A stretch of DNA of 64,000 bases from an uncultured Myxococcales bacterium (GCA_903955385.1 CAJBNH010000158.1:11658-75657); one strand, 5' to 3'. Positions 56,290-59,516 are shown, numbered from the stretch's first letter. Program-made: numbers and translations. Notes: generated by a model from the sequence alone, not told the origin.

Positions 56290-58164
56290 ATGACCCTGAC
56301 CCTGCACGAGATCGATGCCCTGATTCGCGAAGAAGAGGCGGAAGACCGCGACTTCGTTCACTTGACGTCGAATGAGACCCTGATGTCGCCGCTGGCCAGC
56401 CAGGTGCTGTCGTCGCCGCTGGGCAACCGCTATCTGCTGGAACACATCGACATGCGGCAGGACTCGCCCTCGCGGCTGAACGGCTTTCTGTTCAGGGGCT
56501 TGGACCGCGTCAACGCCATCGAGCGGTCGGCCATCGAGGTGTGTCGCCAGATGTTCGCCGCCGAGCAGGTCGAGCTGCGCTGCATCTCGGGTCTGCACGC
56601 CATGCAGACGACGATGGTGTCGCTGACCGAGCCGGGCGACGTGGTCATGCGCTTTGGTGTGGCGGACGGCGGGCACTTCGCGACCGAGAACATCATCAAG
56701 CTCTACGGGCGCAAGAGCAGCACGTACGGGTTCGACCGCGAGCGGCTGACCATCGACCTGGACGCCACGGAGCAGATCTTCAAGCGCGACCGGCCCAAGC
56801 TGCTGTACCTCGATGCGATGAACTACCTGTTTCCGTTCCCGATTCGCCAGCTGCGCGAGATCGTCGGCGACACGCCCATCCTGTACGACGCGAGCCACAC
56901 GCTGGGCCTGATCGCGGGCGGCCAGTTCCAGAACCCGCTGCTGGAGGGCGCCGACATCCTGCAGGCCAACACGCACAAGACGTTTTTCGGCCCGCAGAAA
57001 GGCATCATCCTGGCCCGCAACCGGGAGCTGCTCGAGCGGGTCAGCTACAGCCTGTCGCAGGGTCTGGTGTCGAGCCAGCACACCGCGTCGCTGCTGTCGC
57101 TGTGCATCGCCCTGCACGAGATGCAGCAGGTGGGGCCTGCCTTTGCCCGTCAGGTGATCGCCAACGCCCGCTATCTGGCTGCGCGCATGGCGGACGCCGG
57201 GCTGCCGGTGCTGGCGCGCTCGGACGGCGAGCACACGGCCAACCACCACTTCTTCCTCGACATGACCGGGCGAACCTCTGCCAGCCACGCGATGGAGCGG
57301 TTGCTGCGGGCCCATCTGTCGGTGCAGCGCGGTGTGCCGTTTCGCAATGTCGATGGGCTGCGCGTAGGCGTCCAAGAGATCACGCGGCGCGGCTACACCT
57401 ACGGGGATCTGGACCGCATCGCCGAGTGGTTCGCCGCCATCGTGCTGGGCGGGACGCCGCCTGAGGAAATTGCCCCGCTGGTGATTGCGCTTGCGCGCAG
57501 CCGACGCGACATCCTGTTCACCGGCGACGCGCCCAGTGTGACCGCAGCGGCGGTCGCGTCGCCGGTCGCCACCGTCGGGCCAAGAGACGCCGTTGCCGAT
57601 GCCGGTGACCGCTGGGTCGACTTCGAGCGTCAGCCCGAGCCGTTCCAGATCGAGGACCAGACGGTGTTGCAGATCAGGGAGTTGGGAGCCCTGGCGGGTG
57701 CGTTCCCCAACCAGACCGACGCCACCGGCAACCTGAGTGCGCGCGACGGCGACGACGTGCTGGTCACGACCAGCGGCTGCTACATCAAGCACCTGGAAGC
57801 CCACCACTTTGTTCGGCTGCTGAACTATCGCGACGGCGTGCTGCAGTACGCGGGCACCGGCGTGCCGTCGTCCGAGTCGCTGATGCACTTCCTGATCTAC
57901 CAGACGACCGCTGCGGGTGCGGTGGCGCACACCCACTACCTGCTGTCGAATCAGGAGGCAGAGGCGCTGGGAGTGGCGATTGTGCCGCCGCAGGAGTATG
58001 CGTCGGTCGAGCTGGCGCGCCGGGTGGCCGAGGCTTGCCGGACGCACGCGATTGTCTACGTCCAAAAGCACGGTCTGATCTTCCACGCGCCGGACATCGA
58101 TGCCTGTCGCCTAGCCGTTGCCAAATTTATCCAGCAGAGTCAGGAACTTCGCCATGCCGACTGA
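56290..58164 (+). CDS. Two-domain PLP enzyme: SHMT-like (fold type I) N-terminus fused to a class II aldolase/adducin C-terminus, the 4-fluorothreonine/L-threonine transaldolase architecture
   Basis: N-terminus has LTSNETLMSP and the PLP-Lys context QANTHKTFFGPQKGI of serine hydroxymethyltransferase. Residues ~450-624 carry class II aldolase signatures (GNLSARDGDDVLVTTSG, SSESLMHFLIY, HTHYLLS). Confidence 0.7.
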   Translation: MTLTLHEIDALIREEEAEDRDFVHLTSNETLMSPLASQVLSSPLGNRYLLEHIDMRQDSPSRLNGFLFRGLDRVNAIERSAIEVCRQMFAAEQVELRCISGLHAMQTTMVSLTEPGDVVMRFGVADGGHFATENIIKLYGRKSSTYGFDRERLTIDLDATEQIFKRDRPKLLYLDAMNYLFPFPIRQLREIVGDTPILYDASHTLGLIAGGQFQNPLLEGADILQANTHKTFFGPQKGIILARNRELLERVSYSLSQGLVSSQHTASLLSLCIALHEMQQVGPAFARQVIANARYLAARMADAGLPVLARSDGEHTANHHFFLDMTGRTSASHAMERLLRAHLSVQRGVPFRNVDGLRVGVQEITRRGYTYGDLDRIAEWFAAIVLGGTPPEEIAPLVIALARSRRDILFTGDAPSVTAAAVASPVATVGPRDAVADAGDRWVDFERQPEPFQIEDQTVLQIRELGALAGAFPNQTDATGNLSARDGDDVLVTTSGCYIKHLEAHHFVRLLNYRDGVLQYAGTGVPSSESLMHFLIYQTTAAGAVAHTHYLLSNQEAEALGVAIVPPQEYASVELARRVAEACRTHAIVYVQKHGLIFHAPDIDACRLAVAKFIQQSQELRHAD

Positions 58165-59083
58165 GCCGCGTTCGCTGCACGTTCGCACGCCCCTGTGGCG
58201 CTCGCTGCCGATCTCGCGGGCGGCGGGCTGTCCGGTGTCGTTGAAGATGGAGGCGTTGCAGCCCGACGGGTCGTTCAAGATCCGCGGCATCGGCCGGCTG
58301 TGCGCGCAGGTTGTCGCCAACGGCACGCGGCATCTGGTGTCGGCCTCGGGGGGCAACGCCGGGATTTCGACCGCCAGCGCTGCGCGGGAACTCGGCGTGC
58401 GCGCGACGATCTTCGTGTTCGACGGGGTGCCGCCGACCGCGCTGGAGCGCATTCGCGATCAGGGGGCTGAGGTCGTGCAGGCCGGTGCCACCTGGGCCGA
58501 CGCCAACCGCGCGGCGATTCGAGCTGCGGAAGCGCCGGACTCCTTCTACGTCCATCCCTTTGATCACCCTGAGATTTGGACCGGTCACTCCACACTGGTC
58601 GACGAGATCGTCGCCGACGGCCTGCGCCCGTCGCACATGGTGCTTGCAGTGGGCGGCGGCGGTCTGCTGGCCGGTGTGCTGCAGGGGCTGGATCGTCACG
58701 GGCTGCAGGACGCGCAGATCATCGCCGTCGAGACCGAGGGGACGGCCTCGCTGCACGCGGCGCTGCAGGCGGGTCAGCTGGTGCGACTGGCCAAGATCTC
58801 GTCGGTGGCCAAGACGTTGGGCGCGGACCAGGTGGCGGCCGGGGCTTTCGAGCGGGCCCTTGCCCATCGGGTCGAGTCGATCGTCGTGACGGACGACCAG
58901 GCGCTCTCTGCCGTGCATCGATTCGCCTTGGACCATCGCGTGTTGGTGGAACCGGCGGCGGGTGCGGCGCTGGCGGTGGCCTACGAGTCGCTGGGGTCGA
59001 TCGGTCAGGCGCAGCACGCAGTCATCGTCGTGTGTGGTGGCGCGGGCATCGCGTTGGCTGAGCATCCCTTCACCTATCGGTAG
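58154..59083 (+). CDS. PLP-dependent dehydratase of the threonine/serine dehydratase family (fold type II)
   Basis: PLP-Lys motif GSFKIRG and glycine-rich loop SASGGNAG, ~310 aa (catabolic threonine dehydratase size). The start overlaps the upstream gene's 3' end by 11 nt. Confidence 0.7.
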   Translation: MPTEPRSLHVRTPLWRSLPISRAAGCPVSLKMEALQPDGSFKIRGIGRLCAQVVANGTRHLVSASGGNAGISTASAARELGVRATIFVFDGVPPTALERIRDQGAEVVQAGATWADANRAAIRAAEAPDSFYVHPFDHPEIWTGHSTLVDEIVADGLRPSHMVLAVGGGGLLAGVLQGLDRHGLQDAQIIAVETEGTASLHAALQAGQLVRLAKISSVAKTLGADQVAAGAFERALAHRVESIVVTDDQALSAVHRFALDHRVLVEPAAGAALAVAYESLGSIGQAQHAVIVVCGGAGIALAEHPFTYR

Positions 59084-59126
59084 GCGCAGGCACACGGCGT
59101 CGCGAACGCCGTCCGAGGGAGGCCCC

Positions 59127-59516
59127 GTGCTGCAATTCGCATGGATCTGCTTGGGTGGCGCGGTGGGCACGGGGGCGCGCTACCTGATCGGCCAGTGGGC
59201 GGTCCGGGCACTGGGCGCGGGCCTGCCGTACGGCACGTTCATCGTCAACGTTCTGGGTTCGTTCCTGATCTCGCTGATCATGGGTCTCAGCCTCGAAGCC
59301 AGCGCCATCTCGACCCCCGTGCGCCTGTTTCTGGTCACCGGCGTGATGGGCGGCCTGACCACGTACTCGACGTTCAATTACGAGACGCTGAAGCTGTTTC
59401 AGGGCGGCGCTTGGGGCCTGGCTGCGGCCAACGTGCTGCTGACGGTGACGGCTTGTGCTGCGGCGGGTGTGCTGGGGCTGGTCGTTGTGTCGCGGCTGGT
59501 CGCGCTGGCTCGCTAG
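59127..59516 (+). CDS. crcB: Fluoride ion channel CrcB/Fluc
   Basis: GGAVGTGARYL, GTFIVNVLGSF and GVMGGLTTYSTF match the CrcB signature blocks. 4 TM, 129 aa. GTG start with GGGAGG RBS. Confidence 0.8.
   Translation: MLQFAWICLGGAVGTGARYLIGQWAVRALGAGLPYGTFIVNVLGSFLISLIMGLSLEASAISTPVRLFLVTGVMGGLTTYSTFNYETLKLFQGGAWGLAAANVLLTVTACAAAGVLGLVVVSRLVALAR

Follow-up and report, generated by a model that had tools for sequence, protein, structure and literature searches.

What is a gene of the fluorothreonine transaldolase (FTase) type doing in a myxobacterial chromosome, directly ahead of a dehydratase gene and close to a gene for a fluoride channel? The three genes lie on a stretch of 64,000 nucleotides (64 kb; hereafter the window) from an uncultured Myxococcales bacterium (GCA_903955385.1 CAJBNH010000158.1:11658-75657), where they run in the same direction at 56290-59516 and are called here open reading frames (ORFs) A, B and C; all positions refer to the plus strand. 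A preliminary description of this DNA had put the weight on the third gene, crcB, and on its lack of a fluoride riboswitch. Our comparison of related loci places the weight elsewhere: the conserved and as yet unexplained feature of the locus, and the real finding, is the transaldolase–dehydratase pair formed by ORF A and ORF B.

Organization of the three-gene locus

ORF A (56290-58164) encodes a fluorothreonine-transaldolase-like protein of 624 residues in which two domains are fused: a pyridoxal phosphate (PLP)-dependent “S” domain resembling serine hydroxymethyltransferase (SHMT; residues 6-380, about 56305-57429, Pfam SHMT 1.2e-29) and a zinc “A” domain resembling class II aldolases (residues 478-607, about 57721-58110, Pfam Aldolase_II 4.7e-16). 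ORF B (ATG at 58154, end at 59083) encodes a serine dehydratase (SDH)-like PLP enzyme of fold type II with 309 residues (Pfam PALP 5.5e-70), and its start codon, within ATGCCGACTGA, gives an 11-nt overlap with the stop of ORF A. ORF C, or crcB (GTG at 59127, end at 59516), encodes a CrcB (Fluc) fluoride channel of 129 residues (Pfam CRCB 9.6e-27, 93.8 bits against a cut-off of 32.9; TIGR00494 85.6 bits against a cut-off of 80.45); it follows a 43-nt spacer (59084-59126) and has a strong Shine–Dalgarno sequence of its own, GAGGGAGG (59115-59122), 4 nt ahead of the GTG. The preliminary description had given the same genes and positions, the 11-nt overlap, and the 43-nt spacer with its Shine–Dalgarno sequence; all of these are borne out by the ORF coordinates, the Pfam matches and the public gene callers, which report the same three proteins on an identical metagenome contig of 223 kb.

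ORF A represents a distinct class of fluorothreonine transaldolases

On sequence grounds ORF A is a member of the FTase-type family, as had been proposed: it scores 773.6 bits on the NCBIfam model TIGR04506, “fluorothreonine transaldolase” (equivalog cut-off 650), over profile positions 1-604 of 609, and the FTases of S. cattleya and S. xinghaiensis are 49-50% identical to it over 97-98% of the query length. We distinguish two classes of such proteins: class A, comprising the window protein and P0001-P0016 (62-100% identity; about 17 protein clusters at 90% identity), and class B, comprising the FTase homologues that are 41-56% identical to ORF A. In a neighbour-joining tree class A is monophyletic and nested inside class B, and the most basal FTase group takes in P0099, whose locus (L019) is fluorinase-linked.

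The catalytic apparatus of the family is retained. ORF A conserves the lysine of the THK motif (K230) together with D200, H203 and R366, and in the A domain it conserves the zinc tetrad E569/H547/H549/H594 and N481; in the alignment K230, H547, H549, H594, N481 and E569 are present in 17 of 17 class A members. Mutagenesis of FTaseMA, the FTase of Streptomyces sp. MA37, probed the PLP lysine, His551, His598, Asn484 and Glu573, and the tetrad residues of ORF A match the residues probed there (PMC7162832). The A domain of ORF A finds its best NCBIfam matches in ribulose-1-phosphate aldolase and MtnB, and that of FTase models best on DrdA, which is a 5-deoxyribulose-1-phosphate aldolase, and on MtnB (PMC7162832). 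Five of the 77 aligned class B FTases have H, T or Q in place of the THK lysine, and a second lysine seven residues further on (K237 in window numbering) is invariant in 94 of 94 sequences.

Exactly four columns of ORF A cleanly split class A from class B: A27S, K125A, C136I and G331A. The GGH motif, whose histidine stacks on PLP in SHMTs, comes four residues after position 125, and we take this position, by homology with SHMT, to border the acceptor pocket, the equivalent of the folate pocket. The K125A substitution, near this PLP-stacking motif, may change the acceptor preference of ORF A.

The transaldolase–dehydratase pair recurs across unrelated genomic contexts

We compared the window with a sample of 83 loci collected by a genome scan, a metagenome scan and exact-protein look-ups; the genome-wide scan used a single-protein query and returned close relatives only. 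An SDH-like gene lies directly downstream of the transaldolase gene in every class A locus (the window lineage, L004, L007/8, L009 = L073, the P0005 contig, L076 and L080). A search from the dehydratase side agrees: the genes of P0256 and P0255 (PALP, 64-66% identity) start 8 nt inside the end of a gene with SHMT and Aldolase_II domains. The juxtaposition recurs in at least nine independent genomic contexts, with an overlap of 8-11 nt in seven of nine and gaps of 75 and 190 nt in the other two. Because the flanking genes differ between contexts and are unrelated, the two genes of the pair behave as a module of their own. The preliminary description had suggested looking for recurrent dehydratase and CrcB neighbours around homologous fusion enzymes; the dehydratase is such a neighbour, whereas crcB is confined to L001-L003. 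Directly downstream of the pair, other lineages carry, among others, genes for a GNAT protein, a DAO-type oxidase and an OCD-family enzyme, all of the amino-acid-modifying kind, which fits the handling of an amino-acid antimetabolite.

Class B loci have a different composition. Wherever enough flank is available (L011, L012, L013, L015, L017, L019, L023, L075, L078 and the S. cattleya locus L071), a fluorinase (SAM_HAT) and/or an FthB tRNA-editing deacylase adjoins the FTase gene, with FlK, an EamA exporter, PNP or a Na/H exchanger as frequent companions. Neither fluorinase nor FthB, FlK or PNP was found near the class A loci (12 fetched loci of the clade), the fluorinase and FthB search across loci being made with four queries for each. 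Within the 64-kb window, Pfam analysis of nearly all ORFs and repeated tblastn gave no fluorinase, FthB, FthC or FlK; the S. cattleya fluorinase FlA reached a best E value of 1.5 in tblastn. That query was validated by matches of 62-88% identity in metagenomic clusters, and it missed the divergent SAM_HAT gene of L012.

The fluorinase-linked loci hold some features of their own. L075:3788-15121 is a metagenomic 4-fluorothreonine-type cluster with genes for a tRNA_edit (FthB-like) protein, FlK, FTase, a Na/H exchanger and fluorinase, and it adjoins an extra threonyl-tRNA synthetase, an aspartate kinase and a homoserine dehydrogenase, which may represent a resistant copy of ThrS and a supply of threonine. 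FTase clusters also occur on low-GC, evidently non-actinomycete contigs (L012, 47% GC; L010, 30% GC), and L012:10004-17489 encodes an FthB-like protein, a divergent SAM_HAT protein, PNP and a PNP-NB-ARC-TPR fusion protein of 1072 residues.

ORF B is a remodelled member of the serine dehydratase family

The closest solved structures to ORF B are rat and human L-serine dehydratase (alignment to rat SDH 7e-74). ORF B keeps the SFKIRG motif (S40, F41, K42, R44 and G45, with K42 as the PLP lysine), the asparagine loop S65-G70 (S-x-G-N-x-G) and the tetraglycine phosphate loop G167-G170, and proteins of Pseudomonas and Sinorhizobium that are annotated as L-serine ammonia-lyase are 52-56% identical to it. 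It stays under every curated NCBIfam dehydratase cut-off, the best model being NF006094 with 210.4 bits against 331.

One motif separates the partner dehydratases from their relatives without exception: P-x-T-T, present in 97 of 97 ordinary SDH-like homologues, is replaced by F-x-G-V in 21 of 21 proteins of the partner clade, and F-x-G-V occurs in none of the 97. In the window protein the motif reads F89-D-G91-V92 and follows the fourth strand of the small domain; T211R, D259L and W308Y accompany it in the partner clade. Since ORF A and ORF B both carry clade-specific substitutions, the two enzymes have diverged together since they were paired.

Two further proteins, P0112 and P0114, join a PALP domain of the threonine-synthase-like kind to an FTase-type transaldolase domain without an A domain, and these fusions may couple threonine synthesis to transaldolation. 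As Rosetta-stone support for the gene pair we rejected them: their PALP domain is threonine-synthase-like and not SDH-like, and so lends no support to dehydratase coupling.

crcB is an addition confined to one lineage and has no riboswitch

By tblastn (E ≤ 1) on 80 loci, crcB is present at L001-L003 only, where CrcB is at least 96% identical to that of the window; the other 77 of the 80 loci gave none, nor was a second copy found in the window. Gene callers report an identical CrcB of 129 residues for 22 public contigs; among named homologues a Myxococcales CrcB, at 68% identity, comes nearest. Clade loci without the gene are L004, L007/8, L009/L073, L076, L080 and the contigs of P0005, P0256 and P0255; in L004, a Myxococcales metagenome-assembled genome (MAG) whose homologues of ORF A and ORF B each show 82% identity, a convergent TauD gene stands at the place of crcB. 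The preliminary description had held that homologous loci without crcB would point to chance adjacency. Such loci exist, so that its proposed linkage fails for the wider clade, and crcB is therefore a lineage-specific addition outside the conserved unit. The DUF190-CBS partner that adjoins crcB homologues elsewhere is absent beside the crcB of the window, which looks like a gene relocated into the predicted operon.

The absence of a fluoride riboswitch upstream of the operon and of crcB, noted before from inspection, stands: no Rfam family reaches its gathering score in the 64-kb window, and the fluoride aptamer RF01734 has no match in 55900-59800 even at E ≤ 10. This negative is meaningful because the same tool detects RF01734 (36.1 bits) in L082/L083, ahead of an operon of a Na/H exchanger and crcB; the CrcB encoded there and that of the window share 66% identity. 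At L082:3215-6390 and in L083 a divergent DUF190-CBS gene stands alongside that operon, and in the Myxococcales locus L081 a DUF190-CBS/crcB pair occurs without a riboswitch. Weak matches to sR22, nhaA-I and Guanidine-III (17-19 bits, E ≤ 10, 55900-59800) were dismissed as noise. For the biology of the operon the missing riboswitch means little, since only about 15% of Fluc genes have one (PMC11139923). The earlier statement that CrcB is normally riboswitch-controlled or solitary was thus wrong, as L081, the closest named relative, also illustrates, and its emphasis on a riboswitch-less CrcB was the weakest part of the preliminary description.

Nothing that would separate crcB from the two genes before it was detected either: scans for a consensus promoter or an intrinsic terminator, which are weak for Myxococcota, found none in 55900-59900. 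The 215-nt intergenic region upstream of ORF A (56075-56289), presumed to hold the promoter and leader, contains no sigma-70 consensus. We considered and rejected three candidate elements. An inverted repeat, CTACCTT/AAGGTAG (56247-56270), is not conserved as a regulatory site in L002/L003, which are 97% identical; a 7-bp hairpin in the B–C spacer (59094-59112) folds no more stably than shuffled sequence (z = 0.64), which speaks against a structured element or terminator; and past crcB the folding energy equals that of shuffled sequence.

Discussion

Our comparative results suggest that the module may be detoxifying and defluorinating rather than biosynthetic. The reading that we prefer, tentatively and with somewhat less than even confidence, is a conserved cascade of ORF A and ORF B, translationally coupled and derived in evolution from biosynthetic FTases, by which fluoroacetaldehyde is detoxified and its fluoride exported. 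In such a cascade, which as a general scheme is the best supported, ORF A would cleave L-threonine by means of PLP, with acetaldehyde as the leaving product, and would move the glycyl unit onto a small, heavily hydrated aldehyde of the C2 type, which the zinc A domain would prepare or deliver, to yield a β-hydroxy-α-amino acid. ORF B, made in fixed proportion through the overlapping start and stop codons, would then strip off water and ammonia to leave a 2-oxo acid, so that a toxic amino-acid analogue would never accumulate. In the window lineage the aldehyde would most simply be fluoroacetaldehyde and the intermediate 4-fluorothreonine, which would lose fluoride during or after deamination, and crcB, once recruited behind the two genes at the operon's 3′ end, would export the fluoride released. 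The net effect would be to convert fluoroacetaldehyde, the precursor of lethal fluoroacetate, to fluoride and a 2-oxo acid; a module releasing fluoride in this way would explain why an exporter was recruited. Gene structure, family membership, the conserved pairing and the lack of fluorinase and FthB are observed; the order of the reactions, the identity of the aldehyde and the co-transcription of crcB are what we infer here.

Known chemistry makes the organofluorine idea plausible. FTase is promiscuous toward small hydrated aldehydes (PMC7162832), with kcat/Km values for FTaseMA of 7473 M−1 min−1 for fluoroacetaldehyde, 4096 M−1 min−1 for glycolaldehyde and 1056 M−1 min−1 for chloroacetaldehyde, and PMC10324308 and PMC11777429 cite Wu & Deng 2020 (Org Biomol Chem 18:6236) for the defluorination of 4-fluorothreonine by threonine deaminase. 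The preliminary description had called it striking that a fluoride exporter should be hard-wired to such an enzyme. The adjacency is indeed non-trivial: of the FTase-family lineages, roughly a hundred in number, a single one has a fluoride channel gene next door on the same strand, and by a rough estimate this favours a link to fluoride perhaps five- to tenfold. A more specific formulation, in which an FTase has turned catabolic, converts a haloacetaldehyde to a 4-halothreonine and leaves elimination of the halide to an SDH paralogue and export of fluoride to Fluc, we consider rather unlikely, if still worth keeping in view.

Several points weigh against defluorination. What is hard-wired is so in a single species-level lineage: the juxtaposition of ORF B and crcB is one evolutionary event (L001-L003) and could be chance, and no further fluoride-related gene was found near any class A locus. 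Fluoroacetaldehyde has few natural sources, yet many unrelated metagenomes contain members of the clade. The substitution K125A in ORF A and the change from PxTT to FxGV together with D259L in ORF B suggest a shifted, possibly larger or more hydrophobic substrate, whereas ordinary threonine deaminases, in the work as cited above, defluorinate 4-fluorothreonine without such remodelling. Co-transcription of crcB with the pair is predicted from the arrangement of the genes, and the whole clade is known here through its sequences alone.

Nearly as likely as defluorination is that the same cascade handles a non-halogenated aldehyde and that crcB stands beside it by accident. A candidate is glycolaldehyde, the second-best substrate of FTaseMA, which would pass through 4-hydroxythreonine to 4-hydroxy-2-oxobutanoate; another is 2-(methylthio)acetaldehyde, which would pass through β-hydroxymethionine to 4-methylthio-2-oxobutanoate, a methionine precursor, and could arise from 5-methylthioribulose-1-phosphate cleaved by a DrdA/MtnB-like A domain. 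The absence of crcB from eight of the nine clade contexts argues for such a substrate, as do the likeness of the A domain to DrdA, MtnB and ribulose-1-phosphate aldolase, the substitutions that leave both pockets less polar, and the self-contained character of the module, whose variable flanks are to be expected of a unit that supplies central metabolism by salvage or detoxification. At odds with it, the chance of a same-strand fluoride channel arising beside the pair by accident is, on a rough estimate, well under 1% per lineage, and genes for methylthioadenosine (MTA) salvage, a SAM riboswitch and glycolaldehyde genes were not found near any of the loci. Sulfur-related neighbours exist at some loci, namely cysK directly upstream in L007, Sulf_transp and DUF6691 downstream in the P0005 contig, and TauD with a cysteine desulfurase encapsulin in L004, but they vary between loci and may be noise; we therefore set aside a sulfur-metabolism context, which is suggestive at three loci and inconsistent across loci.

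The nearness of ORF B to annotated L-serine ammonia-lyases (52-56% identity) and, among solved structures, to the mammalian serine dehydratases could also mean that both enzymes simply use threonine or serine in parallel, ORF A as a threonine aldolase or SHMT-like enzyme (threonine to glycine and acetaldehyde) and ORF B as a plain L-serine/L-threonine ammonia-lyase. We consider this improbable, given that the zinc A domain is kept with every catalytic residue, that the split from PxTT to FxGV between the ORF B clade and ordinary serine dehydratases is absolute, and that the tight translational coupling is kept across distant lineages. Moreover, efficient glycine release is not known for the characterised threonine transaldolases (ObiH and FTase). 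Least probable of all, in our judgement, is a genuine producer of 4-fluorothreonine with its fluorinase elsewhere in the genome and with ORF B and CrcB for self-protection. ORF A does pass the equivalog model, and the S. cattleya FTase gene is likewise unlinked to flA (PMC8072733; L071); yet fluorinase, FthB, FthC and FlK are absent from the 64-kb window and from all loci of the clade, while the other FTase loci with enough flank carry fluorinase and/or FthB. A biosynthetic role is unlikely because the two partners would oppose production: a stoichiometrically coupled dehydratase would destroy the product, and co-expression of a fluoride exporter counteracts fluorination. Engineered fluoroacetate production in E. 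coli, for comparison, needed deletion of crcB (PMC11139923).

The locus resembles, in part, several systems already described. ORF A has the two-domain architecture, an SHMT-like PLP domain and a zinc aldolase-like domain, of the FTases from S. cattleya (flFT) and Streptomyces sp. MA37, but it belongs to a distinct monophyletic subclade from Myxococcota and other non-actinomycete MAGs, and in place of the fluorinase, FthB deacylase, FthC exporter and FlK that mark the FTase fthB/fthC locus, its surroundings offer an SDH-like gene. The single-domain L-threonine transaldolases ObiH and LipK carry out the same PLP-dependent transaldolation from L-threonine to an aldehyde acceptor, and among solved relatives of the S domain of ORF A, ObiH (7K34) ranks third; these enzymes lack an A domain, however, belong to natural-product biosynthetic clusters, and their β-hydroxy amino acid is kept and not deaminated. 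The chemistry proposed for ORF B is that of threonine deaminase acting on 4-fluorothreonine, a fold-type II PLP ammonia-lyase that releases fluoride; as far as the citing papers report it, the work of Wu & Deng 2020 concerned housekeeping threonine deaminases in vitro, whereas the window has a dedicated SDH-type paralogue with a remodelled motif and genetic coupling. A cluster in Caballeronia sp. S22 holds genes for a fluoroacetate dehalogenase, an FlK-like thioesterase and CrcB (PMC11812338); there, as in the proposed module, the gene of a C–F-cleaving enzyme adjoins crcB and the released fluoride is exported, although the dehalogenase is a hydrolytic α/β-hydrolase acting on fluoroacetate, without PLP enzymes or a transaldolase. 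Riboswitch-controlled crcB operons (Baker et al. 2012) involve the same exporter family and have crcB as the last gene of a small operon, as predicted for the window, but beside the relatives of crcB that we found, a riboswitch precedes Na/H-exchanger-crcB and a DUF190-CBS gene lies divergently, and the window has neither.

Full-text literature searches returned no paper that ties fluorothreonine transaldolase to crcB and no description of a threonine transaldolase–serine dehydratase pathway or two-gene module, and the FTase literature that they retrieved discusses only fluorinase-containing actinomycetes. New here is an FTase subfamily that has been repurposed, with a dehydratase as its obligate partner and, in one lineage, a fluoride channel besides. 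FTase has so far been taken as a marker of organofluorine biosynthesis, and public annotation names the class A gene “fluorothreonine transaldolase”; as class A never accompanies fluorinase in the surveyed loci, genome mining for fluorometabolite producers will yield false positives from this class. The pair is a compact and directly testable pathway candidate. If it is defluorinating, it would provide a natural template that joins C–F cleavage to fluoride export, fluoride stress being an acknowledged bottleneck in engineered organofluorine degradation, and it would be the first natural, genetically organised route of C–F cleavage built on amino-acid chemistry. If the substrate is instead glycolaldehyde or methylthioacetaldehyde, the pair would constitute a new salvage route from aldehyde to 2-oxo acid with threonine as glycyl donor, which in the case of 2-(methylthio)acetaldehyde would amount to an oxygen-independent shortcut for methionine salvage.

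Genomic surroundings of the locus

The remainder of the window is ordinary chromosome, with genes for ATP synthase epsilon, MeaB, RelA/SpoT, OTCase, bactofilin, BipA, TyrRS and YebC, and the near relatives of the three-gene locus are labelled as Myxococcota or Myxococcales MAGs. The label “uncultured Enterobacteriaceae bacterium” of L003 (CAYURO010000003.1) looks wrong: the sibling records belong to Myxococcota, and ORF A and its homologue in L003 share 97% protein identity, the GC content of the window being 67%. In two other lineages of the clade the neighbours of the pair are as follows. In the L007/L008 lineage the FTase-like gene is preceded, at a distance of roughly 70-90 nt and in the same orientation, by a genuine cysK (L007:8611-9798; 438 bits, the cut-off being 351), and L004:12900-17186, convergent to the pair, encodes a TauD-family dioxygenase, a class V aminotransferase that is of the cysteine desulfurase type and extended at its N-terminus, and an SrpI-like shell protein of a type 2A encapsulin.

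Beyond crcB the window encodes, at 59712-61424, a protein of 230 residues with a weak NifU_N-like match and then a protein of unknown function from the GGGtGRT family (PF14057, 1.1e-190); L003 has an insertion of about 425 bp between these two genes and crcB. Upstream of the locus, at 52125-56074, the gene of a stand-alone B12-binding domain of 155 residues, which resembles the C-terminus of methylmalonyl-CoA mutase, breaks up a tandem array of three acyl-CoA dehydrogenase genes, the MeaB GTPase gene being distant (6681-7655). Just upstream of the acyl-CoA dehydrogenase genes, at 51417-52033, precomputed Pfam hits (L001) mark a pair consisting of a PhdYeFM antitoxin and a PIN-domain toxin.

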